64,000 bases of DNA from a virus (IMGVR_UViG_3300045988_082153:1-64000); one strand, 5' to 3'; positions 12,794 to 53,800 are shown, counted from the first letter of the stretch. Made by a program: numbers and translations. Notes: generated by a model from the letters alone, not told the origin.

Positions 12794-14002
12794 ATGAGTA
12801 ATTGGACAGAAGAACAGCAGGAACAGTACGAGCAGGGCAATGATGGTGGATATACCCCACCTAAAGGTTCGCTTGACTGGGCCGAGCAGCCTACACAGCC
12901 AGAGCCAGCACCGAAAGGGACGGAGGCATGGACCGAGCAGCCTACACAGCCAGAGCCAGCACCGAAAGGGACGGAGGCATGGACCGAGCAGAACAGCGGA
13001 GGCAATGCACCGGAGCCGTCGGAGTCGAAAGAACCACCAAAGACAGATGTGGCACCACCTGCCGACAAGCCAGCCGGTGTGTCGCCACACAACGACACGA
13101 TGGGCTACGACCAGCAGATAGCAGCCTTGCAGGAAGCCGCTAACCGCGTGAAGCCGGAAACCGAGGAGGAACGCAAGAAGAGAGAACGCAGAGAGAAGTC
13201 AGCGAAGATTGTTTCAGCTGTCAGCGACGGTCTGCAAGCGTTGAGCAACCTTTTCTTCACTACTCGCGGTGCTCCTAACATGTATGACCACAAGGAGGCA
13301 AGCCAGCTCACGCCATTGCAGGAGAAACTGGAGAAGCTGAAAGCTGAACGACAAGCCAACGCGGACAAATACCTCCAGTATTCACTCAAAATCGGTGACG
13401 CACAGAATGAGCGTGCCAAGACCTTGCGAGAGATGGAAGCTGAGCAGGAAAAGCAAAAATTGGCACGTGAAAAGGCACAACGTGAGCAAGAAGAGCACGG
13501 ATGGCTTGCGGCATTGCAGCCAGACAAGCAGCGTGAGCAAGCTGGTAAGGCTACTAAAGCCGAACAGGAGGCTGTTACCGCCAAGGCAGAAGCGGACAAT
13601 GCTCCTGATCTCTACAAGGCAAAGGTTGATACCGAAAAGGCACGAGGTGAGGCACAGAGAGCGTCGGCTGCATCAAGCCGGGCAGCGGCTACAGACCATT
13701 ATGCTTCGGCAAGAGCGCACGACCGCTCCAACAACGACGAGTTCAGTGCATGGGACGAGAATGGACGCGAACACAAGTTCAGAACGGCAGCAGCTGCGGA
13801 GGCTTTTGCCAAACAGCACGGCACATTCGAGGAGACCGATGTCACCTCTACAAGCACAACTGACAGCGAGACCAACGGCAAGTCCACTACTACCTACAAG
13901 AAGAAAAGTGGCTATGCCAAGCGCGTAGTTCCCGATAATACGCCCCCAAGCAGAAGACGCGGAGGCAATAAAGATAATACACCACCAAGCAGAAGAAGAT
14001 AA
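12794..14002 (+). CDS. repeat-containing charged coiled-coil protein (virion-associated, hypothetical)
   Basis: 402 aa. Internal 17-aa tandem repeat, long E/K/A/R helical region, duplicated DNTPPSRRR C-terminus. The stop shares one nt with the ATG of the giant gene (TAATG). Confidence 0.55.
   Translation: MSNWTEEQQEQYEQGNDGGYTPPKGSLDWAEQPTQPEPAPKGTEAWTEQPTQPEPAPKGTEAWTEQNSGGNAPEPSESKEPPKTDVAPPADKPAGVSPHNDTMGYDQQIAALQEAANRVKPETEEERKKRERREKSAKIVSAVSDGLQALSNLFFTTRGAPNMYDHKEASQLTPLQEKLEKLKAERQANADKYLQYSLKIGDAQNERAKTLREMEAEQEKQKLAREKAQREQEEHGWLAALQPDKQREQAGKATKAEQEAVTAKAEADNAPDLYKAKVDTEKARGEAQRASAASSRAAATDHYASARAHDRSNNDEFSAWDENGREHKFRTAAAAEAFAKQHGTFEETDVTSTSTTDSETNGKSTTTYKKKSGYAKRVVPDNTPPSRRRGGNKDNTPPSRRR
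12882..12991 (+). repeat. 51-bp in-frame tandem repeat (2 full copies plus 8 nt)
   Basis: CCGAGCAGCCTACACAGCCAGAGCCAGCACCGAAAGGGACGGAGGCATGGA starts at 12882 and 12933, with a partial third copy from 12984. It encodes EQPTQPEPAPKGTEAWT x2. Confidence 0.9.
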
Positions 14003-26000: not shown

Positions 26001-29000
26001 CCTCGGTTTTGCAACAGCCATGCAGCGCGGTGTGAAAGGTGTTGACCCTTCATACAGTAAGAAGTCGCAAGGCGTGTACTTGAAGACGCAAGCCATATTG
26101 GAGAAGAATAACGGTCGCAATGTTATCTTCGCCACTGGTACGCCTATCAGTAATACAGCAGCAGAGATTTGGACTTTCATGCGTTATCTCATGCCAAAGG
26201 ACACCATGAAGGAATACGGTATCTACTACTTTGACGACTTTGTGCGCAACTTCGGCAATATACAGCAGATGCCAGAGTTCAACACAAGCGGCAAGTTCAA
26301 AGAAGTGAACCGTTTTGCAGGATATGTGAACCTGCCCGAATTGGTTCGTATATGGTCAGGGGTAGCAGACACCGTGCTGACCAAAGACCAGACGGAACTT
26401 GTGAAGAAGATACCAGAAATGGAGGGCGGCAAGGCGCAGGACATCTATTTACCACAGACACGCGCTCTTCGCAGTGTGATGAAATATGTGCGTGAAGAAC
26501 TTGAACGCTTTGACCAGATGAGCGGCAAGGAGAAGAAGGAAAACAGCAGCATACCTCTCACTATGTATGGTATTGCTCAAGGAGCCGCTGTTGATGCCCG
26601 ACTTGTGGAAATGCACGCAGAGGATGATCCGAGGAGTAAGACTAACGAAGCCGTACGCCAAACCTTGCGTTCGTTGAAAGAGACTGACGACTATAAGGGT
26701 ACTGTAGCCATCTTTGCCGACCACTACCAGAATAAGCGCAGCGGTTTCAACCTGTATGAGGACATCAAGAAGAAACTCATCCAGCAGGGTATTCCCGAAA
26801 GCGAGGTTATCGTAATGAAGCCCGGCATGACCATCAAGAAGAAGTTGGAAATCTTCGACAAGGTTAACCGAGGCGAGGTGCGTGTTATTCTCGGTAGTAC
26901 TGCTACCCTTGGTACTGGTGTGAACATACAGGAACGTCTGCACACCCTTATACACCTTGATGCGCCAAACCGTCCGATGGACTACACGCAACGCAACGGC
27001 CGCATCTTGCGACAGGGCAATCTGCACAAGCAATGGAATAAACCAGTCCGTGTGCTTCGTTTCGGTGTGGAAGATAGTCTTGACGTAACTGCATATCAGC
27101 GATTGAAGACCAAAGGTGCGATTGCTGATAGTGTTATGGAGGGTGACCGACTGATGCAGGACAGCATGAATAACCGTGTGCTTGAAGAGGAAGAAGATGT
27201 GTTCGGCGACACAGTGGCCCAACTCTCGGGTAGTGAATACGCCCTGCTGAAAAACAATGCGGAGAAGAATGTGCGCAAGTACGAAAGTCGCAAGAAGCAG
27301 TGGGAAGCCGACCAAACCTATATTCACAATGCCAAGCCAAAGTTGGAGGGACAGATAAAGGCAGCAGAGCAACGGGCGGAGGAAGCTAACGCCCAGCTGC
27401 TTGCAGTGCAAAAGGCATTCCCCGATGGCAAGTTCACAGAGATAACTGTTGGCAAACTGAAATTTGCTTCGGTTGATGCCATGGCTGACTTCATCAAGGA
27501 ACACAACAAGAAAATCCTCGATGCAGTAAAGGCGATGAAAGAGAACCCCGGCAATAACGTCCAGACAAATACTCTTACTTTGTCATTGGGAGGTTACGAC
27601 TTTGTTGTCAAGACAGAGATGTCGCGAGAGACTGTGAACAATGGCGGACTGCTGTTTGCCGAGATACATCGTAGAATGAGCTACTCATGCCCTGAACTTG
27701 GTCTGAATAATGTTCCTGTAAAGCAGTCGCTATTGCGCAATGCCGTTGAGGACATCACCGAGAATGTAATCACAGGTAGGGACTTTGCCGAGCGGTTCGA
27801 CATTGCTACACGTATGGTACAGCACGGCAAATCAGAGTTGGAACAACTAAAGCAGCGTGAAGGTAAGCCGTTTGAGTTTGGAAAGGAACTTGAAGAAGCC
27901 AAGCGTCAGCTTGAGGAATATTCCGAGGCCATGAAGGTAGAAATGGCAGAAAAGGAGAAGAAATATGCCGAAATGGACGCAAGTGTAGAAGCTGCTTCAG
28001 ATGTAGTCACCGACGATGAGGACGAGACCGCAGAAGACAAGACGAAGTTCCGTTTGCTTGATGAGGATGATCCAAAGGCGATGGAGCTGGAGTCTTTGCC
28101 GGAGAGTGAGTTGGTTCCTGTTTACCGTAATGTGCAAGCCTTTGAGGATGATGCACTGGGTTCACCTATGGCATTTACCGATGCCGAGACAGGCGAGCGC
28201 AGAACATTGGAAGGCAGACGTTGGAACTATTCTGCACCTCCAAAGGTGGAACTCTCCGAGGAGCAGCAGCGCAAGTTGGACGAACTCAACAAGAATGGCT
28301 ACATCATGGTTGACGGCAAAAAGAGTACAGAGTTGCAGATCAATGACGGTCTGAAATTCGTGAAGCCTAAGACCAAGGAGGCACAGTTGCAGTACTTCCT
28401 GAAGAAGAACCCCGAAGACAAGGGCTTGTGGGCAGCATACGACCCATACGACCATGCCATTGAAACTCCGCTGAACACGCAGTTTGGCGAGGCATACAAG
28501 AGACCGAACCTTGTTGTGGTGCGTAGCCTCATCCCAAAATCGGAGATAGACGAGCCGTTCCACGCAGACTATGCTCTGTTGCCTACCGGTGCCCATCAGT
28601 GGAACAATGGTCGCACACTGTATCTTTCACGCTGGAGCAAGATAGACAAGGTGCTTACCCGTGAGGAGGAAGCTAAGCTCATTGACGAGTACTGGAAGAA
28701 GCATCCGGGAAAGCGTGAGGAGCTAAAGACCCACCGTGACTACAACCGTTTTGTGCCACAAGTGCGCATAGAGTTGGAGAAGATGGGTTACCGCTTTGAA
28801 CTTGATGGCAAGGAGTTGACACCGGAGGAGAGTCTTGCACTCGACAAGCAGAACTGGGAAAGCCGCGATGTTATCCCCGGACGCGAGGGACACACTCCAT
28901 TCGTCAGCAACGAAGACATAGCACGCATCAATGCGAAGATGGCCGGCAAGTGGGTAGGCGAACCGAAGGAAGCAATGGAAAGTGCAATGAGCGATAGAGT

Positions 29001-32000
29001 GACCGAGTTGTCCGAACGTCTGCATACTCCAGTGCGCATCATACGTACAGAGGAAGAAGTGGCTGCATTACCTTCCGTGCGCCAGCGCAGAATGAAGGGT
29101 AGCTTCAATCCTATGACCGGCGAGGTGACTATTGTTGTTCCCAACAATGCTAACATGGCAGACATTGAGAATACGTTTGTGCATGAGGTTGTGGGTCACG
29201 ATGGTTTGCGCGTGCTGTTCCCTGATGAGGCTAAGCTGAACAATGCCCTTGATGAACTCTATCGTGTGTCTAAGGACGAGATACGCGGTACCATTGACCG
29301 CATGGCGCAGAAGATGTACGATGCCGAGGTGGACCGCATACGTGAGAAGAAACGCAAGGAGCATGTAGCCAATGGAGAGGATGCCAACGCTTCATACTAT
29401 GCAGACATGGCAGCAGCACATGCCGAAGCCGGAAAGAAGCGTGAGCAGTTCAAGCGTGATGCAACAGAGGAATATGGAGCCGACCTTGCCGGACGTATCG
29501 GTGAGAAAGGCTTCGAGATGATGAGTGCCGAAGAACTTACGTTCTGGGGCAAGTTGAAAGCTATGCTCCAAAAAGCTCTACAAAAATTGTTGGACGGATT
29601 GAAAATCCCCGGCAAGAGAAAGTGGGGTGATAAGGACTGGGCGTTTGTTCTGCATGAGGCATACAAGCGTAAGAAGAATGGTGGTAAGCCTACTGTGTTC
29701 GATGCTGCTGATACTGAGGTTATGCGCAGAAGAACTGGCTTTGGAGATACTAAGTTCAGTGATGGAAAGCGTGAGCAACAGACTGCTAACGAACGTTTCA
29801 ACAATGAACTTACACGCTATCAGAATGGCGAAATGGATAAGAACGAAATGCTACATCTTGGCAGACCACAAGGTGTAATGCGTACTTTCCTCCCAAACTT
29901 GCCTATTGTTATGCGTCAGCGTGTAATAAAGAAAGGTTCGGAGAAGAAGCATGACGTAGATGTATCTGCCATAATGAACATGCCGCAGCACTTATCTTCG
30001 CCTATATTCGTGTTCCAACGTAGCGAAGACACCATTGGCGTACTTACTGACATGAGAGACCGCAACGGCAAAAACGTATGTGTGGCTATTGAATTGAAGC
30101 GACAGATACAGCAAGGTGCGGAATATCTCGAAGTGAATGATGTGCGTTCGTTCCACGGCAGAGAATTCAAGAACATCGTAGAACCGATTGCGAATAACAA
30201 GACATTGAAGTGGGTGGATAAAGAAAAAGGACTCGCTTATCTCTCCTCAGCGTCACAACCGGTTCAGCAGGAAATAGACAAGCAAGTCCTTGATACTGCG
30301 ACAAAGGTAGTCAAAGATTTTGTAAATCCCAAAGTTTCTGACGAAAATATTGCAGATGAGGGCATTATGTTCCGCGATGGTGACATGGGACTTGAAGAAA
30401 CCATCACTAAGATGAAGGTTGAGGCAAGCCAAGCGAACGCCGACAACTGGCAAGCCAAGCAGGACGCAATGAGAGCCATCGGTGGCAATCTGAACAAATT
30501 GCGTCAGGCAATGGCACGTCAGAGAGAGTATGACCTATCAACCGTTAAGAGCATAACAGACCTTGCAAAGGTGTTGCTTGAAAACGGATTGCTCGATGAT
30601 CTGAGCAAGTATGAGACAAAGCGCATCCTATCAGCCGTGAACAATGTACATGGCAAGCAGGACGTAAGTGATTACGTACAGAAGGTTATGGACATCATGG
30701 TTGACAACCAGCTACGCATGGGAGCTAACCAGCTGGGCAAACTACTTTCCATCCGTGGAAGCCGCGTTGACGCGCGAGGTATTGAGGTGCAAGGACAGCT
30801 TGACCCAGAAGGCCAGCGTATAGCGCAGGTGGTTAGGAAAGCTACTTCCTTACCAAAGGAGAACATAGAGGAGCGTATTGCAGACTGCACCAATCGTATG
30901 AGTAGTGACGACAATGCCGTAGCCGAGGAAGCAGCTATCGAGTACAGCGGTCTGTTGCTTGCCCATCAGTTTGTAGAGGACATCACCGAAAGCAAGGCAG
31001 AGGAAAAGGCTCTTCGTGAAAGCATTAAGGAAGCCAAGGCCGACTTGGATGCCGGAACGATGGAAGCCGATGCTTACCGTGAATACGTGGAGTCAACCAA
31101 CGATGCCATCCGTCAGAATAAGATAGAGCGAGCCGAAGCCTACCGCAGCATAGTGGAGCAAGCAGGCGGTGTTCTTGGTGGCAGCGTTGAGCGAGCCAAG
31201 GCATGGCGTGAGGCAGAGAAGCAGCGCGTTGAGACCATCCATCACAATGCCAACTCCGATATGACCGGCAGACCTAACGACGAGCATCACAAGGAAAGCA
31301 AGGCACAGAAGATAGCCAATAACAGTATAGTGCGCTTTGTTCTTGCACCTTTAGGCACGTTCGACCAGATGCTGAGAATGTTCGGAAAGAAAAGCGTGAA
31401 CGGTGAGGGCTACTTGTGGAACCGCTATATGCGTGGATGGGTTGAGGCTACCGAAAAGGAGTACACCGGTTATCAAAACGCCTTGAAGACGCTCGACGAG
31501 AAGGTTAGCGACCTATTCGGCAAGAAGATGAAATGGGGCGACCTATTCTCTTTGGAGCGCAACCTTCCAAAAGCGACCGTTACCTTCTGGGACGGTGGCG
31601 AGCAGAAGGCACACGAACTGACACAAGGCAACCTTCTGTATATATACATGGTTGACAAGATGGCAGACGGCCGCATGAAGTTGCGCCGTATGGGCATCAC
31701 CGAGGAAGATGTGGAGAACATAAAAGAATTTGTTGATCCTCGCTTCTTAGAACTTGCCGACTGGATGCAGGACGAGTTCCTTGTGGAAAAACGCAACGAG
31801 TACAACGAGGTGCATAAGCGCATGTTCGGTGCTTCAATGGCAGCGATTGAGAACTACTTCCCTTTGAAGATACTTGCCAATGCGAGAATTGAAGAAGTGG
31901 ACGTAGCCGACGATACAACCGACACCGCATTACCGGCGACCTCAACCGGTAGCATCATCAAGCGCAGACGCAACAATCTTGCCCTTGACGTGATGGGAGC

Positions 32001-41767: not shown

Positions 41768-42403
41768 ATGGTGTACAAAATCGAAGTCGTGGAGCGTGAC
41801 GTGCGCATTGCCATTGACGAAAACAAGACAAACGATCAGCTCATCAGCGATGAGGACATTGACACCTTATCGTTGAATGACATCATCCGCTCAAAGATAG
41901 TTGAAGCCGTTCGGCGTGTAGAGTCGTCCGCTCCCGTTCACTACTTGGAAGAAGGTCACGTGTTTGGCGATGCCATCTACTGGGAGAACAACGGAAGCGG
42001 TTGGACTCTGCTGCCCGATGATTTCATGCGTCTTGTAGCCTTTCGCATGAGCGACTGGGAACGCACCTGCTATATGGCCATATCAGCAGACGACCCATTG
42101 TATGATTTGCAATCGTCAAGATACAAGGGTATTCGCGGCAATGTCCAAAAGCCGGTGTGTGCCGTAGTGAACCGTGCCGAGGGCAAGGTGTTGGAGTTCT
42201 ACAGTTGCAACAGTGAAGAAGCCTACGTGAAACGTGCCTCATACATTCCTTATCCGAGCATAGACGAGGAGGACGGCATAGACATCAGCGAGCGTTGTTA
42301 CACAGCCGTGGTCTATACTACGGCTGCATTAGTATTAACCGCCTATGGTGCGAGCGAGCAAGCTGCCGCAATGAACACCTTGGCAAAAAGCATTTTTGAA
42401 TAA
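41768..42403 (+). CDS. hypothetical virion protein (head-tail adaptor position)
   Basis: 211-aa ORF. Its stop overlaps the tail-fibre ATG (TAATG). Confidence 0.45.
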   Translation: MVYKIEVVERDVRIAIDENKTNDQLISDEDIDTLSLNDIIRSKIVEAVRRVESSAPVHYLEEGHVFGDAIYWENNGSGWTLLPDDFMRLVAFRMSDWERTCYMAISADDPLYDLQSSRYKGIRGNVQKPVCAVVNRAEGKVLEFYSCNSEEAYVKRASYIPYPSIDEEDGIDISERCYTAVVYTTAALVLTAYGASEQAAAMNTLAKSIFE

Positions 42404-45400
42404 TGAGTTCAATACCAACAAAACAGATAGATGGTGACGTTGCGGTTAGTCGTGACGTTAACATCGGCGGCAAGGCCACCATACGCGGTTCGGCAAAGGT
42501 CGGCCACAATCTGACCGTTGACGGCTGGCTTGAAGCCAAGAACATAAAAGGCCCGAACAAAGGCCTGTTCAAAACGGCGGCACAGCTACGCGAGGCTTAC
42601 CCTAATCCTCATGAAGGATGGTGGGCGTTGGTGACCGTAGAAGGCAGTGCAGCGTCAGATCATCTTGGCCAGCTCTATGTAGCTGACGGTGGTACATGGG
42701 TAGCGCAAGTTGACAGCAACGGTAATCCGCTGCTGAAGGGTAATCCTACGGTTGATAGCACCGAGTACATGGAAGCCGTGGAGGGAATGACAGCCGATCT
42801 CGAAGCCGTGAAGGTGGACGTTAACCAGAACAAGAGCGACATCAGCAGTTTGCGCACCACGCAGACCACGCAGGGTAACAGCATCAACACTCTAAATACC
42901 CAGATGAATACTGCACAGAGCGACATAACAACTCTGAAAAAGACCGTCAGTGACAACAAAACGGAACTTGCCAAGGGTGTGGCGGAAGTGCAGAGTGACC
43001 TCAACACTTTCAAAAAGACCAAAGGAGAGGCAGGAGGACTGGCACCGCTGGACGAGAACGGACAGGTGTCTTCGCAATATCTGCCCAGTTATGTGGACGA
43101 TGCCTTGGAATTTGGCTGCATCGTAAGTGATGTAACAGCGCAGATGTCTTCTGTATCTAAAAAATCAGATGATGAAAACTGCTCGGTTGTTTATAACAAG
43201 ACAACCAACACTTTCTTACTGAAATATTCCAAGCCATCAGAGTCTGAATTTGACTTACGTCCGACTATCACTTACTACAACAATTGGCTCGATGGTGACT
43301 TGTACGGTGAAGCCACCATGAACGGTCGTGTGCCCCACAGCGGCAAGATATTCATGGACGTAAGCACCAACAAGACCTACCGCTGGGCAGGGACAAAACT
43401 TGCCGTAATCGGTTCAGACCTTGCGCTCGGTCATACCAGCGGCACCGCATTTCCTGGTAATGAAGGAGCCGACATTCAGGAACGTATGAACGAGGTGGAG
43501 AGTACAGCTGACATCAACCGTCAACTGATAGAAAATACCTCCACAGAACTACTATGTCGCAACACAATCAATGCTAATAACCTGCTATCGTTGGGCGAAA
43601 GGGAGGTGACACTATCTGTTGTGCTTGAAAAAATCTTCGATTTGGAGAACAGCGTGCGCTATATGAAGCCCGGTATTGTTCTATCATTCCTTTCAGAAAC
43701 AGGCATACAAAACAAGCAGTGGACGAACTACGGCAAGAAAACAGAAACAGATTGGAAAACCGAGGCCAACTGGACAGACTTCGGCTCGAACGGCAGTGCC
43801 ATAGGCAACACGGTGAATGTAAATGACATCTGCGATGATACTGAATACACCCTTTCTACCGCCATAAAAGCCGTGCTCGACAAGGAGAAAGAGAGCGGAC
43901 TGTCGTATATGAAAGCAGGTGTTGTGCTGACCTACAAGACCGCAGACATGACCAGCAACGGCTCGCCCAAATGGGAAGCCTACCAATTCACACGCAACGT
44001 AGAAGACATCAACCCAGCCGACTTGAAGCCGTGGGTGGAGTTTGGCGGAGGCGGCAACAATGCCGTACCCACCTCGGACACCCCAGAGAAAGACGGCAAG
44101 GAAGCCTTCTCGACAGGCGGCGCATACACCAACATACCCAACAACCTGCGCATCGACACCGAAACCCAAGGTGTGGTGAAACTCCAGCTGGAGAACGCCG
44201 AGCATGAAGCCGTGGGCGATGAGGTGCAGTTTGCCGTAGGCGGCGGTGGTGGAGAGAGTACAGGCACCATTGTGAGCATACAGTTTGAGCAAAGTCCGCT
44301 CTATGCCAAGGCAGGAGGCAGCGTGGTGATGAAAGCCGCCGTGCGAAGCATCACCACGCAAGGCAACAACGAGCTGAGCAACATGATAGAAAAGGTGGTT
44401 CTGAAAGACCGCGACACGGGACAGACCTTGGAGACTTTCATGTTCAACCGCGCCTCGTCAGCCAGCGGAGACACCTACGACTTCGAGATGGACGTGAGCA
44501 GCTACTTCGTGACCGCCACAACAAAGAGGTTCCAACTCATAGCCTACGACGATGCAGGAAACACGGGAAGCCGCAACATCAACGTGAGCGGTGTGGACGT
44601 GACCATCAGCAGTGTGCAGACACTGAACTACACCAGCAGCACCTCGCTTGCCGTAGGCGGAGTCGCCAAGAGCATACCGATGTACAAGTTTGCCAACAAC
44701 GCTTCGGACAAGGGCATCAAGGTTATTACCGAGATATACATGAACGGCGAGTGGAAGACCCTCGGCGAGCAGACCATACTTGACACCTACTCGCATAGCA
44801 TCACCGTGGATCCAAAGAGCTGCTTGACTGAAGCACTCACGCACGGAGCCTATCCCCTGCGCATCCATGGCGAAGATGTGGGCAGCGGTGTGAGGGGCAA
44901 CTACCTGCATACCGCCATTATGGTAGTGGAAGCAGGGAACAATACCCCAATCATCGCCATGCGGTGGTACACCGACCAGCTGAAAGGCAAGCGCAAGCTA
45001 TACGAGAACATCGAAATAGACTATGCCGTGTATGTAGGCGACAACGATGAGCCGCAAGCCACCATACTCTATGACGGAGCAAAGGAGACCACCGCCATAG
45101 CCTACCGCCAGCAGACCAACACCTACACCAAGCAAGTGCTTGAGAGCGTGCATGACGGCACGAAGAGCGTGTCGGTGCAAGTGACGTGCGGCGACAGCCA
45201 AGGCGAGACCGCTACATTTGTGGTGGACGGTTCGCTTGTAGACGTGGAAGAAGTGACCACCCTCAGAGAGTTCAACATCACAATGGACTCACGCAGCAAC
45301 GGCGAGACCGACAAGAGCATCAAGGACGGCAGCGTGGAGGTGAACGTGGAGAACTGTAACTGGAGCAGCAACGGCTTTGTAAAGGACACCTACGGCACAC

Positions 45401-48400
45401 CCACCTACGGAACGGAGAACGACAAGGGACGCATGGCACTGCGCATAGCAGAGGACATGAAAGCCCGATGCACCTACAAACCATTCTCCGGCACAAGCAT
45501 CGAGCAGAACGGACTGGCACTGAGTTTCACCATCAAGGTGAAGAACGTGGAAGACCGCACGGCAAGGCTCATAGACTGCCTTGGCGACAACTCGCTCGGC
45601 TTCTATGTGACAGGCGAGAAGCTTGTATTCACCTGCGACGGAGCCACCGCCGCCAACCAAGACGACCTTGGCGCACAGCAGACCGCCGTAGCCCTGTATG
45701 CGACCGACAAGGAGACCCGCTTTGACATCGTGATAGAGCCGACCAGCATTGCCCCCTACTCGGGTATAGGCAGCATCAAGATATATGTGAACGGAGACGA
45801 GGTAGCAGCCACCTACTACAATGCAGGACGCTTCGCGCACAACGACATGACGATGCTCTTTGACGGCACAAAAGCCGACATCTACCTGTACCGCCTCACG
45901 GCATGGGCGACCTACTACAACTACCGCCAAGCGTTCAACAACTACCTCGTAGGACAGAAAGACACCACCGCCATGCTGACCGAATACGAGAAGAACCAAG
46001 TGATGGCATCGCAGACGGCAGAGGGAATAACCAAAGACCGCCCCACACTGCAAGCGTGCATGAACGCAGGACTGTGCTGCGTGACGCTGCTGAAGAACGC
46101 CGACACCCCCGACATAGAGCAGAGCTACCCCGGCTACCTTGACAAGCTGGACGGCGACAAGAAGACCAAAGCCTACTTTGACTGGGTAATCCGTTTTCCC
46201 GACCGCCCATGGCAGGACTGCAAGGTGTACAATGTGCCGACCACCAACCAAGGCACGACCTCATCGCTTCGCCCAATCAAGAACAAGAAAGGCAAGTTCA
46301 AGGGCTGCAAGATTGAGATGCTCCACACCGAGGAGGACTTCAAGGACAACCCGACGGCACTCGCTAAGTTCAAGACGGCACAGAAGATGGCAGCGAAGAG
46401 CCAAATACAGGTGATAGACGGCGGCTTGTGGGTAAAGACCATAACAATCAAGGTGGACTATTCCGACTCGACAGGCGCGAACAACGGAGCCACGATGGAA
46501 CTGTTCAACAAGGTGCAGCGCGCCATGGGAGCCGACTATATGACCCCTGCACAGAACGCCTACAACGGCGAAGGCACGATGAACACCAGCATCGACAGCG
46601 TGACGTGCGCCCTGTTCCGCACCGACCAGCAGAGCGTGGATGCCACCAACGAGACCTACGCCTACTTCCATGCCAAGGCCAACTTCAACGTGGACAAGGG
46701 CAACCCCTCTTTCTTCGGCTTCGAGAAAGTGAGCGGCTACAACGGAGATTGCTTGAACTATGGCGACTTCAAGGAACTCGTGGCAGAGAAAGGCCAAGAC
46801 ATCAACATCTTCAAGGTACAGTCCCTTGCCAAGAGTGACGAACTCATAGCCTCGAACATCTACATGCTCTCGGAGTACTGCGGCGAGAAGCACATCTTCC
46901 TGGAGAATGACGGTACGGGAAAAATGGCAGAGTGTGATGCTACCGCCGACCCGACCGAAGTGGACAAGAGCCTTGCCGAAGTCATTGCCGATGATGTGAA
47001 GAACTATGACTGGGGAACGGTGTACTTGACCAACGACTACAAGTATGTGAAGTACACAGGCGGCAAGTGGAAAGACACCACGGGCAAGATGCAGTATGAC
47101 CAGAGCGTGAAGAAATGGACGGTGACAGGCAGAGTGCTGAACCCTGTGGAGTGCTTCGAGTACTTGAAGTATGACAGTCTGTGCTGGCTGCAAGGCGTGA
47201 ACGGCATCGAAGACATGATGAAGCTCGACCCTGCCACAAGCAAACCCATCTGGCTGAGTTACTACGAAAGCCGATACCCCGATGATGACGACTTGAACGA
47301 CCTGTATGCGCAGGGCAAGAAAGTGCCGTACCGCCTGTACAAGTGGCTGCGGTGGACGCAAGACTGCTCGCAAGACCGCACAGAGGCAGACGGCGACATC
47401 ACCATTCACGGCAAGACCGTGGCAGGAACCAAGGAGAACCGTCTGAAGAAGTTCTGCGAAGAGCTGCACGAATGGGCCAACGTGAAATCCACATTGTCGT
47501 ATGTGGTGGGCAGCGATTATGTATTGGCCGTTGACCAGCGAAGCAAGAACATGATGATAACGTTCTACCTCGACACCAACGGACTGGTACGCGCCTACTT
47601 CAACCACTGGTATGATGGTGACTGCGTGTGGCTCTCGGACAACGACTGCGGTGTGACCATACCTTGGGACTTGGACAGCAAGGTAGACCCCAAGCACTAC
47701 TACCAAGGCTGGAACTCGGTGATGTTCCAGCAAGCGTATGCAGGAGACAAGTTCTGGCTTGACGACAAGGGCAGCACTACCGTAACACTGCATGATGTGG
47801 CGCAGGATATGCGCACGGCAGAGGCAGACGGCATCAAGATATTCTCGGCAGACGGCTGCAAGAAGCTGTGGATAACCGACCGCATAGACAAGTGGGCGAA
47901 GATAACCAGTTCGTTTGACAACGAGCGCAAATACATAGAGAACTCCAAGGCAGGAGCCAACTACTACTATGCCGTACACGGACTGAGGTATGAAGACCTG
48001 CCTGTAACGTTTGAGAAGCGTTTCGCCTATCGTGACGGCTTCTACCAAGTTGGCGAGCTGTACACCAACCCGTTCAAGATGCGTGCCGTGGGTACGGACA
48101 TCAGCATCAAGATAACGGCAGCGCAGGACGCATTCTTCGGACTGGGTGTGGACCGTGCAGACGCTTGTGTGGACAGCTGTTACCTCAAAGCAGGAGAAAG
48201 CTATACGCTGAAGAGCGGCATGACCGCCACAGGCTCGGGAACGATGCTCTATGTGTTTGGTGCGAAATACCTTGCCAGCCTTGACGTGAGCGGCTGCACA
48301 CCAAAGGCAGAGGGCTGGGACATCAGCAACTGCGACCTGCTGCAGGAGATAATCATCGGCGGTGAGGACTACACGCCAGAAGAAGGCAGCGGAGCCATCA

Positions 48401-50625
48401 CCCAACTGAACATGGGCAACAAGAGTTTCTTGAAGCGCATAGACGTGCGGAACACGAAGATAACGAGCATCATAGCCTCGTACTGTCCACGGCTGACCGA
48501 GGTGCTGGCGAGCGGTTCGCAACTTGCGAGCATTGACTTGGCAGAGACCGCCCCGATAGAAACGCTACAGTTGCCCGGTACTATGACCACACTCTACTTC
48601 AAGAACCTGCCACGGCTGACCTATCCCGGCGGACTGACCATTGAGGGCGGCATGAGCAAGGTGACGAAGATGTTCTTGGACGAATGTCCGAAGATAGACA
48701 CCATGACCTTGCTGCGGCAGATAACCACGGCAGGAGCGTTGAAGAGTGTGCGCATACCCGGCATCAATGCCACGGCAAGTGTGGAGATGCTGCGCGCTAT
48801 AAAGAATAGCGGTGCCGTGGGAATAGATGCCAACGGAGCAACCTACGATGAGAGCGGCCAGTGTAGTGGACTGTTGGGACGCTGGATATTGACAGAGTTG
48901 GTGGAAGATGAAGAGGTGGAAGCCCTGCAAACGTACTTCCCCAGACTGACCGTCATCAACTCGCAGTTCTCCATGGTGAAGATAGACGATGTAGTGAGCG
49001 GCGACTTCTGCGAGAAATACAGCAATCCCGAGAACGAGACAGGTGCCGACTACGACAAGACATTCGTGGCAAGCGGACACACACTGAAAATCGTGCAGAA
49101 CACCCATGCCTACAAGTGTACCTACAACAGTAAGTTGAAACAGATGGAAGGCAGACAACTGAGCGACACCGACTTCAACCGCCTCATTAACGGCGAAACC
49201 TTTGATGTGGGCGACAGCGCAGGAGAAGGCTTCGACATCTTCCACCATTTACCCCACTTCTGGTACAAAGGTGTGAACGACTACAAGAACCAAGTAAAGT
49301 ATATCTTCCACTCAATGACCGACAACGAGCCGCTGACCACCGTAGGCAAGAAGAAAGAAGCAATGCTTTCGGAGTTGCTCTATGCCGAGAATACAGGCAT
49401 CTATGCAGACGAGGCGCAGGAGGGCGAGACCATCGGCGACAACATCATCACGACAGCCGCCAACGTGAATGCCTACCGCATGGACGTGGAAGGCATGAAG
49501 CAAGTGAGGTGGCCTGGACTGAACCATGCAAGGCTCGGAGCCGTGTTCACCGATGCGAGCGGAAAGATAGTAGGCAAGTTCATCATGATGGTGAGCCACA
49601 CCTACTTTGACTTCACCATAGGCAAATATGTGTTCTGTGATGTGCCGAACGGTGCCAAGTGGATGTACTTCACATCGTATCGCGACATCGAAGACACCAT
49701 GTGTCTTGCCGTTGACAGCGAGAGTTTGGAAGCCATAGAACCCGAATGGACGGAGCATACCGTGGGCGATGTGGACAGCCTCGTTGGAACGTACCCCATA
49801 ACCATAGACGGACTGAAACGCCCCCGAAGCATATCGGGAGCGGTGCGTTCGAAGAAAGGCGACGGAACATCGCAGACCTCAAACGAATGGGCATACGACA
49901 GCGAGGGCAACCCGACGGAGATGCCTAACGGCACGTTGCACTTCACCGACAAGGACTTCCAGAACTGCTGCCGTATGCGTGGCGAGGGTTATCAGTTGCA
50001 AGACTACGAGATGCACAAGGAGATAAGCAACCTGTGGTGGGCAACGCACGGCACGACCAACGAGCAAGCCGTTGTGGGCAACGGAGCGCATGATGCGATA
50101 CTGAACAGCCGCGACGACATAGGCATGGCCGACACCGCCTATGTGGGCAATGCGATGAACTCAATCATGGGCTTGAAGCACTATGTGGGCTGTGACTCGG
50201 AGTGGATGGACTACATAGCAGGAAACGTGAAGAGCTACACAGAGTTCTACAAGAACAGATGCGTGGAGACAAACGACGACCCTGTGGACTATGTGTTCCA
50301 CATCTACGACCCGATAAAGAAGACAGAGCGCATGGTACAGAGCGTTACCAGTGGCGGCAACTGCGTGGTGAGAGTTGTGCATGGAGCCAAGTGCGACATA
50401 TTGCCCAGCAAGGTGCATCAGACCGACACCAGCAAATACACGACCCACTATGCGGCAGGACTATGGTTCCCCGGCAGCAGAGGCCGCTGTGTTCTGCGGT
50501 CTGGCAACTACTCGTATGCGAACAGCGGTCTCGCTTGTGCGTACGCGAACTACGCTTCTTCGCACTCGTACACGGACTACGGCGGTCGGCTGGCCTTCCG
50601 CGGAAAATTCGTGATTGTTGACTAA
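42403..50625 (+). CDS. giant tail fibre / receptor-binding protein, 2740 aa, DGR target
   Basis: N-terminal fibre-like region with coiled coil and the GGLAPLDENGQVSSQYLPSYVDD motif common in tail fibres. Leucine-rich-repeat segment (~48268-48810). The C-terminus carries the DGR variable region. Confidence 0.85.
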   Translation: MSSIPTKQIDGDVAVSRDVNIGGKATIRGSAKVGHNLTVDGWLEAKNIKGPNKGLFKTAAQLREAYPNPHEGWWALVTVEGSAASDHLGQLYVADGGTWVAQVDSNGNPLLKGNPTVDSTEYMEAVEGMTADLEAVKVDVNQNKSDISSLRTTQTTQGNSINTLNTQMNTAQSDITTLKKTVSDNKTELAKGVAEVQSDLNTFKKTKGEAGGLAPLDENGQVSSQYLPSYVDDALEFGCIVSDVTAQMSSVSKKSDDENCSVVYNKTTNTFLLKYSKPSESEFDLRPTITYYNNWLDGDLYGEATMNGRVPHSGKIFMDVSTNKTYRWAGTKLAVIGSDLALGHTSGTAFPGNEGADIQERMNEVESTADINRQLIENTSTELLCRNTINANNLLSLGEREVTLSVVLEKIFDLENSVRYMKPGIVLSFLSETGIQNKQWTNYGKKTETDWKTEANWTDFGSNGSAIGNTVNVNDICDDTEYTLSTAIKAVLDKEKESGLSYMKAGVVLTYKTADMTSNGSPKWEAYQFTRNVEDINPADLKPWVEFGGGGNNAVPTSDTPEKDGKEAFSTGGAYTNIPNNLRIDTETQGVVKLQLENAEHEAVGDEVQFAVGGGGGESTGTIVSIQFEQSPLYAKAGGSVVMKAAVRSITTQGNNELSNMIEKVVLKDRDTGQTLETFMFNRASSASGDTYDFEMDVSSYFVTATTKRFQLIAYDDAGNTGSRNINVSGVDVTISSVQTLNYTSSTSLAVGGVAKSIPMYKFANNASDKGIKVITEIYMNGEWKTLGEQTILDTYSHSITVDPKSCLTEALTHGAYPLRIHGEDVGSGVRGNYLHTAIMVVEAGNNTPIIAMRWYTDQLKGKRKLYENIEIDYAVYVGDNDEPQATILYDGAKETTAIAYRQQTNTYTKQVLESVHDGTKSVSVQVTCGDSQGETATFVVDGSLVDVEEVTTLREFNITMDSRSNGETDKSIKDGSVEVNVENCNWSSNGFVKDTYGTPTYGTENDKGRMALRIAEDMKARCTYKPFSGTSIEQNGLALSFTIKVKNVEDRTARLIDCLGDNSLGFYVTGEKLVFTCDGATAANQDDLGAQQTAVALYATDKETRFDIVIEPTSIAPYSGIGSIKIYVNGDEVAATYYNAGRFAHNDMTMLFDGTKADIYLYRLTAWATYYNYRQAFNNYLVGQKDTTAMLTEYEKNQVMASQTAEGITKDRPTLQACMNAGLCCVTLLKNADTPDIEQSYPGYLDKLDGDKKTKAYFDWVIRFPDRPWQDCKVYNVPTTNQGTTSSLRPIKNKKGKFKGCKIEMLHTEEDFKDNPTALAKFKTAQKMAAKSQIQVIDGGLWVKTITIKVDYSDSTGANNGATMELFNKVQRAMGADYMTPAQNAYNGEGTMNTSIDSVTCALFRTDQQSVDATNETYAYFHAKANFNVDKGNPSFFGFEKVSGYNGDCLNYGDFKELVAEKGQDINIFKVQSLAKSDELIASNIYMLSEYCGEKHIFLENDGTGKMAECDATADPTEVDKSLAEVIADDVKNYDWGTVYLTNDYKYVKYTGGKWKDTTGKMQYDQSVKKWTVTGRVLNPVECFEYLKYDSLCWLQGVNGIEDMMKLDPATSKPIWLSYYESRYPDDDDLNDLYAQGKKVPYRLYKWLRWTQDCSQDRTEADGDITIHGKTVAGTKENRLKKFCEELHEWANVKSTLSYVVGSDYVLAVDQRSKNMMITFYLDTNGLVRAYFNHWYDGDCVWLSDNDCGVTIPWDLDSKVDPKHYYQGWNSVMFQQAYAGDKFWLDDKGSTTVTLHDVAQDMRTAEADGIKIFSADGCKKLWITDRIDKWAKITSSFDNERKYIENSKAGANYYYAVHGLRYEDLPVTFEKRFAYRDGFYQVGELYTNPFKMRAVGTDISIKITAAQDAFFGLGVDRADACVDSCYLKAGESYTLKSGMTATGSGTMLYVFGAKYLASLDVSGCTPKAEGWDISNCDLLQEIIIGGEDYTPEEGSGAITQLNMGNKSFLKRIDVRNTKITSIIASYCPRLTEVLASGSQLASIDLAETAPIETLQLPGTMTTLYFKNLPRLTYPGGLTIEGGMSKVTKMFLDECPKIDTMTLLRQITTAGALKSVRIPGINATASVEMLRAIKNSGAVGIDANGATYDESGQCSGLLGRWILTELVEDEEVEALQTYFPRLTVINSQFSMVKIDDVVSGDFCEKYSNPENETGADYDKTFVASGHTLKIVQNTHAYKCTYNSKLKQMEGRQLSDTDFNRLINGETFDVGDSAGEGFDIFHHLPHFWYKGVNDYKNQVKYIFHSMTDNEPLTTVGKKKEAMLSELLYAENTGIYADEAQEGETIGDNIITTAANVNAYRMDVEGMKQVRWPGLNHARLGAVFTDASGKIVGKFIMMVSHTYFDFTIGKYVFCDVPNGAKWMYFTSYRDIEDTMCLAVDSESLEAIEPEWTEHTVGDVDSLVGTYPITIDGLKRPRSISGAVRSKKGDGTSQTSNEWAYDSEGNPTEMPNGTLHFTDKDFQNCCRMRGEGYQLQDYEMHKEISNLWWATHGTTNEQAVVGNGAHDAILNSRDDIGMADTAYVGNAMNSIMGLKHYVGCDSEWMDYIAGNVKSYTEFYKNRCVETNDDPVDYVFHIYDPIKKTERMVQSVTSGGNCVVRVVHGAKCDILPSKVHQTDTSKYTTHYAAGLWFPGSRGRCVLRSGNYSYANSGLACAYANYASSHSYTDYGGRLAFRGKFVIVD
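50483..50598 (+). repeat. DGR variable region (VR)
   Basis: 116 nt, gapless match to TR 51437-51552. 105/116 positions identical, and all 11 mismatches lie at TR adenines. Confidence 0.92.
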
Positions 50626-50654
50626 GCGGAAAGCGAAAGCTCGAAAAAAGCGTC

Positions 50655-50721
50655 AGAGGGAGAGCCGACGAAAGGAGGCTGCTCCCTCTCCCTTTTTATC
50701 TCGCGTCAGCGAGATTTTTTA
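50655..50721 (+). terminator. tandem Rho-independent terminators after the tail-fibre gene
   Basis: AGAGGGAG/CTCCCTCT stem (50655-50690) then CCCTTTTT. ATCTCGC-GTCA-GCGAGAT (50698-50715) then TTTTTT. Confidence 0.6.
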
Positions 50722-50773
50722 TAGGCTCTGCAAAATAAAAGTAAAAGTTGTATGATATATCAACTTTTTGTAT

Positions 50774-50781
50774 TACCTTTG
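50774..50781 (+). promoter_or_regulatory. TAnnTTTG promoter element of the TA-TR-RT unit
   Basis: TACCTTTG ends 4 nt before ATG 50786, implying a leaderless or near-leaderless transcript. Confidence 0.35.
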
Positions 50782-50785
50782 CACC

Positions 50786-51121
50786 ATGAACTCAGAACGG
50801 AGAATACTGGTTTACAAAGATTATTTCCTCACGTTCTACCGCGCCTTGGAAGCAGGAGCGCAGAAGAAGATAGACTATGTGCTTGATGTGCTGAAGATGC
50901 AGGACAGAGTGAGCGAAAAATTTGTAAAGTACATAAAGGATGGTCTCTATGAAATAAGAGCCTCCTACAATGGTAATATATATCGAGCGTTCTTCATTTT
51001 CGACGAGGGCAACATCGTGATGCTCTTCAACGGCTTTCAGAAGAAAACCCAGAAGACACCCTCCAAAGAGATAGACAGAGCACTTGAACTTAAAAAGGAA
51101 TATTATGCAGGAAAGAAATGA
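50786..51121 (+). CDS. higB: RelE/ParE-superfamily toxin, Gp49/HigB-like
   Basis: ILVYKDYFLTFYRALEAGAQKKIDYVLDVL...GLYEIRASYNGNIYRAFFIFDEGNIVMLFNGFQKKTQKTPSKEIDRALELKKEY matches the phage Gp49-like toxin pattern. Confidence 0.85.
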   Translation: MNSERRILVYKDYFLTFYRALEAGAQKKIDYVLDVLKMQDRVSEKFVKYIKDGLYEIRASYNGNIYRAFFIFDEGNIVMLFNGFQKKTQKTPSKEIDRALELKKEYYAGKK

Positions 51122-51407
51122 CATTAGCAGTTTTGATGCCATTCTTGACGCCAAGTATGGAGCAGTAGGAACTGCGGAAAGAGAGGCTTTCAGAAAAGAA
51201 GCCACCAACTATTGCGTGGGACAGATTATCTATGATGCCCGTAAGCAGGAGCACATGACCCAATCTGACCTCGCAAAGAAAGTCGGTACGGACAAGACCT
51301 ACATATCACGCATAGAGAAAGGTGTGATAGAGCCTGGTGTGGGAATGTTTTTCCGCATCATTGACGCTTTGGGACTAAAAGTGGACATTGTGCGTCCGAT
51401 AGTATAA
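51105..51407 (+). CDS. higA: XRE-family HTH antitoxin, HigA-like
   Basis: The ATG overlaps the toxin 3' end by 17 nt. HMTQSDLAKKVGTDKTYISRIEKGVIEPGVGMFFRIIDALGLKVDI is an HTH_3 motif. Confidence 0.85.
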   Translation: MQERNDISSFDAILDAKYGAVGTAEREAFRKEATNYCVGQIIYDARKQEHMTQSDLAKKVGTDKTYISRIEKGVIEPGVGMFFRIIDALGLKVDIVRPIV

Positions 51408-51436
51408 CAAGAAACAAAAGGCAGAAAATCCCACGC

Positions 51437-51552
51437 GCCGCTGTGTTCTGCGGTCTGGCAACAACTCGAATGCGAACAGCGGTCTCGCTTATGCGAACGC
51501 GAACAACGCTTCTTCGAACTCGAACACGAACTACGGCGGTCGGCTGAAATTC
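51437..51552 (+). repeat. DGR template repeat (TR)
   Basis: Read in the VR frame it gives RCVLRSGNNSNANSGLAYANANNASSNSNTNYGGRLKF, rich in AAC/AAT codons. Begins 29 nt after the higA stop and ends 98 nt before the RT ATG. Confidence 0.92.
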
Positions 51553-51650
51553 TAAGTGGTACTTAATCGGGGGACTCTGACGTGGCACGAGGATTGCCGC
51601 AAACAAACTCCGAGGGATTAGAGCCTCGGCAACAGCATGATAAACGAATT

Positions 51651-53138
51651 ATGGAAAGCCGGAACACGACATTAACCACATGTGGGGAGTGCGCAAGTAT
51701 CTCCCCACAGGACAGGAAGGCTGTCAACACATTGGAAGACTTGTTAGGACAGGTAGAAGCACCGACTTCTATCTGTTTTCCTTTATATAACCTCATCCCA
51801 GAAATTATTTCGGACGAAAACATGGAACGCTCGTTCAAGCGTGTCATGTCGAACCTTCATAACGCAGACACGCGAAGCGGAATAAAATGGAGGGAGACGG
51901 TTGTTATAGATGGTGTGGAATGTACTCCACGCATGGTGCGCTATATGAGACGCAAGAAAGAAATTATTGCCGAGTTGAAAGAACAAATAGGTAATGGAAC
52001 TTTCCGCGTTGTTCGTTTATCCTCGTTTGAAGTGGACGATGGTCCGAAGAAAAGAATGGTTCAAGCACCTCCTGTTGTGAAACGTATAGGCTGCAATGCC
52101 ATCATGGAGATTGTGGAAAAACACCTTTCGCCATTGCTAATTGAAAACACGGCAGCTTCGATAGAAGGACGCGGCCCACACGGACTATTCCACAAGATGC
52201 AGGAAGTGAGAGCCGAGAACCCCGACCTTATATATTATTATCAAAGCGACTATAAAGGTTATTATGACCACATATTGCACGACAAGATGATTGACATCAT
52301 CAAGCAGTATATAGCCGACCCGATATTACTCCCCATACTAATAGACTTCGTTAAAGTATTGCACCCGGATGGCAACGTAGGCATCAGCAAGGGACTACGC
52401 TCCTCGCAGTTCTTCGGCAACCTGTACCACAATGACATTGACCATGCCATGATAGAGGAGTGTGGAAAGGATAACTACAACCGCTTTTGTGACGACATAT
52501 ACATATATGGAGACAACAAAAAAGAGTTGTGGAAACACAGGGACACACTGCATAGGCTAAGTAAACCCTACAATCTGATAATCAAGCCGAGCGAGAAGGT
52601 TGCTCCAGTGAGTGCAGGAATGGATGCACTGGGTTATATTGATTATGGTGACCACTCACGAATACGCAAGCGCACAAAGGTGAACGCTGCGAGGAAACTC
52701 GCCAAGATAAAGTCGAGAAAGCGAAGGCAACAAATTATAGGCTCGTTCAAAGGAATGGCATGTCATGCGGACTGCCAGCATTTATATTATATATTAACAG
52801 GTAAAAACATGAAGAAATTTTCAGAAATGGGCGTGACCTATAAGCCAGCAGACGGAAAGAAACGTTTTCCCGGTAAGGTGACACGCTTGGGTGACATCGT
52901 GAAAATCCCGGTAGAAATTCACGACTACGAGACACTGGACACGAAGTTTGGCGAAGACCGCTACTTAGTGTCGTTCAAGAACCCTGCGACACAGGAATGG
53001 GGCAAGTTCTTCACCGCTTCGGACGAGATGAAAGGCATCCTTGACCAGATAAGCGACATCGAGGATGGCTTTCCGTTTGAGACCGTCATCAAGTGCGAAC
53101 AGTTTGACGGCAGCAAGCGAAAGTATAACTTCACCTAA
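51651..53138 (+). CDS. DGR-type reverse transcriptase with C-terminal extension
   Basis: LYNLIPEIISDENMERSFKRV N-terminal motif. AASIEGRGPHG. SDYKGYYDHILHDKM. DGR hallmark GLRSSQFFGNLY (SQ motif). Catalytic FCDDIYIYG (YxDD-type). LGYIDY thumb. About 109 extra C-terminal residues. Confidence 0.9.
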   Translation: MESRNTTLTTCGECASISPQDRKAVNTLEDLLGQVEAPTSICFPLYNLIPEIISDENMERSFKRVMSNLHNADTRSGIKWRETVVIDGVECTPRMVRYMRRKKEIIAELKEQIGNGTFRVVRLSSFEVDDGPKKRMVQAPPVVKRIGCNAIMEIVEKHLSPLLIENTAASIEGRGPHGLFHKMQEVRAENPDLIYYYQSDYKGYYDHILHDKMIDIIKQYIADPILLPILIDFVKVLHPDGNVGISKGLRSSQFFGNLYHNDIDHAMIEECGKDNYNRFCDDIYIYGDNKKELWKHRDTLHRLSKPYNLIIKPSEKVAPVSAGMDALGYIDYGDHSRIRKRTKVNAARKLAKIKSRKRRQQIIGSFKGMACHADCQHLYYILTGKNMKKFSEMGVTYKPADGKKRFPGKVTRLGDIVKIPVEIHDYETLDTKFGEDRYLVSFKNPATQEWGKFFTASDEMKGILDQISDIEDGFPFETVIKCEQFDGSKRKYNFT

Positions 53139-53181
53139 AGCGACTCACTAAAGATAAAAGCGTGAATTGGGCTGCATACTA

Positions 53182-53189
53182 TATCTTTG
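53182..53189 (+). promoter_or_regulatory. TAnnTTTG promoter element
   Basis: TATCTTTG lies 22 nt upstream of ATG 53212. Confidence 0.35.
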
Positions 53190-53211
53190 CCTCAACAAAA
53201 TCATAGCGACA

Positions 53212-53682
53212 ATGGAAAAGATATACGGCACAACCAAACGTCAGGACGGACTGCAACGAGTAGGCAAGAATAAATGGCTGCTCTATTTCGGTCTGTATGA
53301 AACAGAGAGCGGTACATACGAATACCGCCATACGTTCACGCACAAGCCCACGCTTGACGAGATAAAGAAACTTGTTTGGGCTACGATAGACGCAGAGACC
53401 AAAGACAAGATTGTTAATCAGTTTGAGTATGAGGGCATCAAGGTTTGGCTCACAGACGAGAAGCAGCGTAACTTTGCCTCTATTGAGAACAACGAAAGTG
53501 TTACATTCCCACTTACGTTGAAGCTCAACGAGAAAGCCGACGCTACACCAATCTATCATACCTTCCAGACGCGAGACGAGTTCAAGAAGTTCAGCGAGGC
53601 CGCTGCATGTTTCATTCTTGAAACCATCAGGAACGGATGGAAGGAGAAGGACAATGTAGATTGGGACGTGTTTGACATGTAA
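53212..53682 (+). CDS. hypothetical protein (possibly DUF4376-like)
   Basis: 156 aa. KIVNQFEYEGIKVWLTDEKQRNFASIEN is loosely reminiscent of DUF4376 tail-fibre-associated domains. Has its own promoter and terminator. Confidence 0.4.
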   Translation: MEKIYGTTKRQDGLQRVGKNKWLLYFGLYETESGTYEYRHTFTHKPTLDEIKKLVWATIDAETKDKIVNQFEYEGIKVWLTDEKQRNFASIENNESVTFPLTLKLNEKADATPIYHTFQTRDEFKKFSEAAACFILETIRNGWKEKDNVDWDVFDM

Positions 53683-53707
53683 TCACAACATTATCAATAA
53701 GAGGAAC

Positions 53708-53733
53708 AGGAGAAATCTTGCTCCTCTTTTTTT
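53708..53733 (+). terminator. Rho-independent terminator
   Basis: AGGAG-AAATCTTG-CTCCT followed by CTTTTTTT. Confidence 0.55.
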
Positions 53734-53773
53734 GTGCTACAATAGTTAAAACGACGCTCACCGGTTAAGTCGC

Positions 53774-53781
53774 TAAATTTG
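53774..53781 (+). promoter_or_regulatory. TAnnTTTG promoter element of the lysis cassette
   Basis: TAAATTTG lies 19 nt upstream of ATG 53801. Confidence 0.4.
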
Positions 53782-53800
53782 CCAAGAACATAAAATCATA

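Follow-up and report, generated by a model that had tools for sequence, protein, structure and literature searches.

The 64,000-nucleotide (nt) virus stretch IMGVR_UViG_3300045988_082153:1-64000 (here called the window, to which all coordinates refer) carries a diversity-generating retroelement (DGR) with a toxin-antitoxin (TA) gene pair between its variable repeat (VR) and its template repeat (TR). The order along the locus is a tail-fibre gene containing VR, two terminators, a -7 promoter box, a Gp49/HigB-like toxin gene, an XRE-family helix-turn-helix (HTH) antitoxin gene, TR, and the reverse transcriptase (RT) gene. Comparison with about 180 related loci in total suggested that an optional HigBA cassette has probably taken the promoter position of a DGR that lacks the accessory protein Avd, such that TR RNA and RT would be supplied by read-through from an antitoxin-repressible promoter. 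The hosts of this arrangement would be temperate Bacteroidales phages whose DGR, composed of a target gene with VR, TR, and a long RT, is natively Avd-less. Insertion would have placed a self-contained HigB/HigA-type cassette after the tail-fibre terminators and ahead of the structured TR RNA, at the site where TA-less relatives keep the TR-RT promoter. The cassette promoter would then drive toxin, antitoxin, TR RNA, and RT as one transcript, and autorepression by the antitoxin (or the TA complex) would control the supply of DGR template and enzyme. The cassette itself would be no part of the retrohoming chemistry and no replacement for Avd.

The locus is a textbook DGR core, with a TR/VR pair, an RT gene adjoining TR, and VR at the 3' end of the target open reading frame (ORF), which stops 33 nt after the end of VR (Table 1). 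All eight VR/TR differences were found at TR adenines; because they are confined to adenines of the downstream copy, the downstream copy is the TR. The same adenine-only pattern of mismatches holds in about 55 relatives. The RT motif GLRSSQ fits the DGR-type GxxxSQ and was invariant across 19 homologues, and giant ORFs syntenic with the target gene sit 5' of RT in all relatives. A sequence-only reading of the window had described the layout of the ORFs, with a 17-nt overlap between toxin and antitoxin and with TR beginning 29 nt beyond the antitoxin stop, and had also placed two terminators at the end of the tail-fibre gene and a TAnnTTTG element in front of higB. Every sequence statement of this layout held; both terminators were found as a hairpin followed by a T-run, and the element was confirmed as TACCTTTG. 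Terminator 1 is conserved in all clades, and its hairpin may double as the DGR target-site hairpin.

The toxin matched Pfam PF05973 with 80 bits against a cut-off of 23.9. Its closest match in the PDB was HigB of Streptococcus pneumoniae (6af3, E 5e-5), with which it has the motif KKTQKTP in common, and PHROG files its family as "moron/toxin". A PADLOC match to NsnC was at the domain level alone and is uninformative on a role in defence. The toxin gene comes first, in the same orientation as the antitoxin gene, and both are under strong purifying selection, with dN/dS of 0.02 to 0.06 for the toxin and 0.03 to 0.08 for the antitoxin. By domain content and gene order, the pair is assigned as a HigBA-like type II TA module of predicted toxicity. 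Toxin-first overlapping ORFs, the Gp49 fold family, an HTH antitoxin, and a promoter palindrome are likewise found in the HigBA module of S. pneumoniae and that of Mycobacterium tuberculosis HigB1. The window differs from such modules in that no terminator follows its antitoxin gene, so that the predicted operon runs on into the DGR template and the RT gene.

Three sets of related loci were compared. The first comprised 80 IMG/VR loci (RT 70 to 99% identical) and was biased towards close relatives, the second 17 loci round more distant RT homologues, and the third 80 loci from species-representative Bacteroidales genomes (RT 38 to 83% identical); the metagenomic contigs are non-independent samples. 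Common to all three sets was the synteny of a giant tail-fibre gene, the optional pair, TR, RT, a DUF4376 gene, an amidase gene, and a DUF6808 gene. The pair was kept as a unit in 71 of the 92 informative loci of the first two sets and was present in only 7 of the 80 species-representative loci, 50 of which had a gene-free gap with a VR-to-TR start spacing of 208 to 407 nt. The position between VR and TR singled out by the sequence-only reading is the one at which the pair was found in relatives, never at unrelated ones, and many relatives lacked it. Two phages in GenBank, BS-TP4 (PQ571277) and BKO1-TP3 (PQ571269), matched the window. Bacteroides phage BS-TP4 and its relatives in the TGPI collection (PMC12694917) have the same layout as the window, and in the GenBank record of BS-TP4 the interval from the target gene to RT contains an annotated "Addiction module toxin RelE" and "transcriptional regulator"; the pair there differs in being of a second allele type (type 2, below). 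The TGPI paper reports DGRs and leaves the TA pair unmentioned.

In a close TA-less subgroup, the sister loci L013-L045 (RT 93 to 98% identical), 11 to 17 VR/TR mismatches were observed, each at a TR adenine; nine loci of this subgroup were informative in the presence count and twelve in the mismatch comparison. Because these sisters carry adenine-only mismatches, retrohoming proceeds without the pair, which, as judged from this comparison, is dispensable for it.

Several relatives departed from the usual repeat composition or taxonomy. Two TRs (L037:5791-5900 and L033:5791-5900) contained 10 and 18 adenines, compared with 24 in close relatives, with VR differences that were still adenine-only; here the change appears to lie in the TR, through overwriting or erosion. 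In L067, L120, and L145, VR and TR were 100% identical, with 0 mismatches, as would result from a recent reset of VR from TR or from a DGR that has yet to act. Two loci with RTs 83% identical (L100, CAVKHW010000119.1; L112, CAVKZC010000034.1) came from metagenome-assembled genomes labelled Eggerthellaceae and Sphaerochaetaceae, labels that probably reflect an error of binning and not a move between hosts.

Evidence for a shared promoter came from the position of the -7 box, whose consensus in Bacteroidetes is TAnnTTTG (PMC7366714). A TAnnTTTGCA box was present at the same aligned position in every clade examined. In TA-less clades (RT 52 to 98% identical to that of the window) it was located 8 to 35 nt 5' of a conserved TR leader, in each clade examined, while in TA-bearing loci the sole box was 5' of the toxin gene and the leader began 8 to 15 nt past the antitoxin stop. 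No exact -7 box was found inside any of 8 divergent cassettes, and an internal cassette promoter was rejected as a candidate, the one-mismatch sites there not being conserved in position. A sigma-70 scan gave results at chance level, and the sigma-70 model is irrelevant for Bacteroidetes. No terminator-like site was found on the + strand from 50722 to the RT start, hence none between antitoxin and TR, and no allele type or clade of the cassette brings a terminator. The absence of a hairpin or T-run between higA and TR, and of a promoter motif between TR and the RT start codon (no exact TAnnTTTG on the + strand), had both been asserted by the sequence-only reading and were borne out, and its proposal that TA genes, TR RNA, and RT form one unit gained support, by comparison only, from the conserved box and the lack of an internal box or terminator. 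As the cassette is without a terminator and stands at the promoter position of TR-RT, toxin, antitoxin, TR RNA, and RT mRNA are most likely one transcript. The most economical reading is a single operon, P/O-higB-higA-TR-RT, with a predicted start site and predicted read-through, in which the self-repressed promoter of the cassette appears to be the only promoter for TR and RT.

The box ends 4 nt 5' of the toxin ATG in the window and in all other type-1 cassettes (L046, L043, L093, and L140), a gap that implies a leaderless or near-leaderless toxin mRNA if the box is used as predicted. Leaders in type-2 cassettes were mostly about 17 to 20 nt long, and about 70 nt in L092. Just 5' of the box lies a palindrome, AAAAGTTG-N10-CAACTTTT, which overlaps the -33 region of the promoter. 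In the form AAAGTTG-N10-CAACTTT it accompanied every type-1 cassette, even at RT identities of 48 to 61%; a Duncaniella prophage whose RT was 48% identical had the same palindrome and the same 4-nt gap. Type-2 cassettes brought a different palindrome, AAA(C/T)GTTC-N8-GAACATTT. The palindrome therefore follows the TA allele type and not the RT clade. HigA antitoxins are known to act on palindromic operators to repress their own promoters (PMC6987408), and the linkage of palindrome and HTH allele is as expected of an antitoxin operator with putative HigA binding. In TA-less sister loci the palindrome was degenerate, with a half-site left, which suggests secondary loss of the pair.

The two allele types are also evidence for mobility. 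The cassette consists of the candidate palindromic operator, the -7 box, higB, and higA, and the type-1 allele was found in the window and the four loci named above, the type-2 allele in BS-TP4 (L065), L071, and L092, with a variant 2b in L086. Between types, toxins were 26 to 41% and antitoxins 25 to 34% identical, though the corresponding RTs were 65 to 74% identical; within type 1, the proteins were 78 to 83% identical where RTs share only 48 to 61%. On an unbootstrapped neighbour-joining tree of the RTs, type 1, type 2, and the empty state were interleaved, a pattern that calls for two or more replacements and three or more losses. From these patterns, the pair is taken to be an optional mobile cassette that is swapped among phages at one site. 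Locus L074 keeps the cassette and VR intact, but the spacer, the greater part of TR, and some 35 codons at the start of RT have been lost by a deletion between two copies of TGCGGTCTG (microhomology; L074:6030-6045 compared with L065:5785-6130). Since the cassette was retained after loss of TR and the RT 5' end, it is maintained for its own sake.

The start of the DGR RNA could be delimited by its structure. The leader (A)GGCAGAWAAYCCC directly precedes TR in TA-less clades, and the same leader is present in TA-bearing loci. The leader pairs, as the 5' strand, with a segment of the TR-RT spacer in a predicted long-range helix that encloses TR (AGGC..AAUCCC with GGGAUU..GCCU) and is conserved at RT identities of 52 to 99%. 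In 40 unique sequences, 98.7% of cells were paired, versus 52 to 55% with the partner shifted by 1 nt, and three pairs showed compensatory double changes in separate clades. At 51610-51629, a local hairpin (CCGAGG/CCUCGG) is in competition with this helix. An alternative pairing of GGCAG with UUGCC, by the CGAG loop, was dropped because the spacer segment forms its own local hairpin and both RNAalifold and the counts favour GGGAUU..GCCU. In this lineage without Avd, the DGR RNA probably has the long-range helix as one of its core elements. Given the covarying leader helix, the structured DGR RNA begins right after higA, without a promoter of its own.

Table 1. Features of the DGR locus and the TA cassette in the window
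Feature	Position	Strand	Description
DGR target gene, tail-fibre-like, 2740 amino acids (aa)	42403-50625	+	ORF; C-terminal end holds VR
VR	50483-50592	+	110-nt direct repeat of TR, 93% identity
Terminator 1	50655-50693	+	GC-rich hairpin and T-run, 3' of target stop codon; conserved in all clades, TA-less included
Intrinsic terminator 2	50698-50721	+	ATCTCGC-GTCA-GCGAGAT then TTTTTT; hairpin 50698-50715 and T-run
Palindrome AAAAGTTG-N10-CAACTTTT, candidate antitoxin operator	50743-50768		overlaps promoter -33 region
Bacteroidetes -7 box TACCTTTG	50774-50781	+	sole exact TAnnTTTG on + strand, 45213-53182
Gp49/HigB-like RelE-superfamily toxin, 111 aa, isoelectric point (pI) 9.5	50786-51121	+	Pfam PF05973, E 1.2e-22
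XRE-family HTH antitoxin, 100 aa	51105-51407	+	HTH_3, E 3e-14; HipB-like and Y4mF-like matches
Conserved TR leader AGGCAGAAAATCCC, predicted helix 5' strand	51419-51432	+	RNAalifold; starts 11 nt past antitoxin stop
TR	51437-51546	+	110 nt, 24 adenines
GGGATTAGAGCCT, predicted helix 3' strand in TR-RT spacer	51614-51626	+	RNAalifold
DGR reverse transcriptase, 498 aa	51642-53138	+	RVT_1, E 1.2e-9; GLRSSQ motif
RT C-terminal ~124 aa (residues 375-498), OB-fold-like (lead)	52764-53135	+	AF2 model
DUF4376 protein, 156 aa, pI 5.5	53212-53682	+	adjoins RT; conserved phage gene

The sequence-only reading had further held that no Avd-like ORF is present in the cassette and that the TA pair occupies the slot of Avd. 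Avd (PF05635), about 128 aa long, is basic and folds into a four-helix bundle. The former claim agreed with a profile search, as no match to PF05635 was found at E<=1 in the six-frame translation of 50600-53800, nor in other window ORFs of at least 70 aa, a scan that left out the giant 6640-aa ORF. The latter claim did not stand: the RT lineage (38 to 99% identity) is without Avd, and its VR-TR gap is normally gene-free. By this comparison, the DGR is natively Avd-less and no Avd slot is filled. Such DGRs are already documented, as 26% of DGRs and as "Lineage 3" (PMC5758913), and Architecture A1 (target-TR-RT) and Lineage 3 of that survey by Wu et al. (2018) resemble the window in lacking avd, in their Bacteroidales hosts, and in their TR-RT core. 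A difference is that the parts of the survey consulted call "sandwiched" genes uninformative and describe no TA cassette there (PMC5758913).

It is scarcely credible that the pair, or one of its proteins, serves as a functional replacement of Avd as RT cofactor. In the DGR of Bordetella phage BPP-1 (mtd-avd-TR-brt), VR is also at the 3' end of a tail-fibre gene, TR is 5' of RT, mutagenesis is adenine-specific, and a small gene lies directly 5' of TR in the same operon, so that the pair sits where avd does; the toxin is moreover small and basic, as Avd is. However, the sister loci without the pair show adenine-specific diversification of VR, a gene-free VR-TR gap is the norm of the lineage, the toxin belongs to the Gp49/RelE family and is no four-helix bundle, and RTs with 65 to 74% identity are served by two allele types that share only 25 to 41%. 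The diversifying TA-less sisters and the empty gap effectively refute the pair as an Avd substitute. The window DGR further differs from that of BPP-1 in its lack of Avd, in the make-up of its 498-aa RT, which has additional sequence at the N-terminus and an OB-like domain at the C-terminus, and in that its genes 5' of TR are a TA pair dispensable for diversification.

The C-terminal domain is the most conserved part of the RT (66 to 88% identity, compared with 54 to 84% for the whole protein) and matches PHROG 19665, a stand-alone family. Its AF2 model, of moderate confidence (pLDDT 64.6), has the topology beta1-3/helix/beta4-5 and showed weak similarity to the single-stranded DNA-binding proteins PrgE and PRD1 P12 in the PDB, with TM-scores of 0.30 to 0.39. 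The OB-fold assignment is a lead only; the modelled domain could supply the nucleic-acid binding done by Avd elsewhere.

The DUF4376 ORF next to RT was considered as a hidden Avd or DGR accessory and rejected, being acidic, a member of a generic phage family, and modelled confidently as an alpha/beta fold (pLDDT 93.9) with no four-helix bundle. No relative was found for it in the PDB, and its structural relatives occur in many DGR-free phages; the gene is probably outside the DGR proper. The CH1 accessory of Architecture E1 (Wu et al., 2018), an acidic, motif-free protein of 160 to 169 aa, flanks Avd-less Bacteroides DGRs. With its 156 aa and pI of 5.5, the DUF4376 protein was set beside CH1 (160 to 169 aa, acidic) by description only.

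Several observations weigh against a HigBA cassette that controls the DGR from a shared promoter. The toxin scored 32 bits against the narrower NCBIfam model TIGR02683, under its cut-off of 62.85. TAnnTTTG was no commoner than chance across the window (35 found, 32 expected), and the weight of the box therefore comes from its conservation among relatives. Only about 3.7% of the 5' untranslated regions of B. thetaiotaomicron are shorter than 10 nt (PMC7366714), as the type-1 toxin leader would be. TR-RT could have an independent source, either in RNA processing or in a promoter within higA that is non-consensus or read by an alternative sigma factor. The numbers of VR/TR mismatches were alike in TA-bearing (5 to 17) and TA-less (11 to 17) loci, and the cassette has no visible long-term effect on DGR output.

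How much the linkage matters to the phage can be read in more than one way. The patchy distribution of the pair, with its losses and allele replacements on the RT tree and its rarity in the genome-representative loci, is also what would be expected of an ordinary moron, an addiction or anti-phage module in a permissive gap on which TR-RT expression does not meaningfully depend. The conserved VR and TR flanks would then promote homologous exchange and thereby keep the module at this site, and either another promoter exists or read-through is incidental and neutral. That the DGR works without the pair, that L074 holds its cassette despite deletion of TR and the RT 5' end, and that PHROG labels the toxin family "moron/toxin" are in line with this explanation. 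Like phage morons and TA loci that stabilise integron arrays or integrative and conjugative elements (ICEs), the cassette is optional, horizontally exchanged, equipped with its own promoter, and placed in an intergenic gap of the late region. It departs from them in having no terminator of its own and in occupying the promoter position of a neighbouring unit. A -7 box is always present 5' of TR in TA-less loci, TA-bearing loci have none there apart from that of the cassette, and whatever the allele type or clade, the cassette never brings a terminator. Insertion of the cassette would therefore always entail read-through into TR-RT as a matter of structure, whatever the selective value of this, and independence of TR-RT expression from the pair was considered rather unlikely. 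An equally tentative place was given to the converse, that the cassette is a regulatory input of the DGR. As the sole TR/RT promoter, it would keep tail-fibre hypermutation low while antitoxin is abundant and allow bursts once the antitoxin is degraded or titrated, for example through host stress, prophage induction, or superinfection by a phage with the other allele type, and it might penalise VR/TR collapse in lysogens.

A non-exclusive and improbable alternative is a guard function of the cassette. As direct repeats of ~110 nt with about 90% identity, VR and TR can recombine, which would remove everything in between and destroy the DGR; deletion of the pair would then lead to post-segregational killing of collapsed lysogens. 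In integron arrays and ICEs, TA loci are known to keep adjoining DNA stable. Collapsed loci do exist, in BKO1-TP3 (L002:6001-6110) and L078:5780-5889, where the cassette is gone and RT remains intact 3' of one hybrid repeat, which has the 5' flank of VR, continues as a TR body with all its adenines, and ends in the 3' flank of TR. This hybrid repeat looks like the product of homologous recombination between VR and TR, with loss of the TA cassette and an end to diversification, and the nearest relatives of the collapsed loci carry type-2 cassettes. Yet BKO1-TP3 was isolated as a viable phage, so that a phage can survive collapse, in lytic growth at least, and a cassette is missing from most of the lineage.

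Elsewhere in the window, a single 6640-aa ORF at 14002-33924 (+) takes up almost one third of the sequence, 5' of a P22-like portal gene. An integrase-like protein (Phage_int_SAM_5), a SNF2 helicase, a RecT recombinase, and an HU-like protein are also encoded (9650-11146 (+), 1538-3007 (-), and 5477-6559 (-)). These genes are consistent with a temperate phage that, like BS-TP4, has about 64 kb.

Neither DGRs without Avd nor HigBA modules are new, and the pair is even annotated in the GenBank record of BS-TP4. No paper on a TA cassette inside a DGR, or on a promoter link of such a cassette to TR-RT, was found in the limited literature searched, where the two subjects came together only in reviews that treat them as unrelated. 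Little is known of how DGR activity is regulated, and this family of gut phages offers natural matched variants, with a type-1 cassette, a type-2 cassette, no cassette, a collapsed VR/TR, or a deleted TR. The family is abundant in the human gut, with at least one member isolated and propagated, and relatives of BS-TP4 were reported from about 31% of 930 viromes (PMC12694917). The comparison would also pin down the TR-RT promoter of the Avd-less lineage, and this promoter, the TR-enclosing helix, and the OB-like RT domain constitute three leads on Avd-independent retrohoming. Should the cassette indeed act as a regulatory input, it would be the first natural TA switch that gates targeted mutagenesis.

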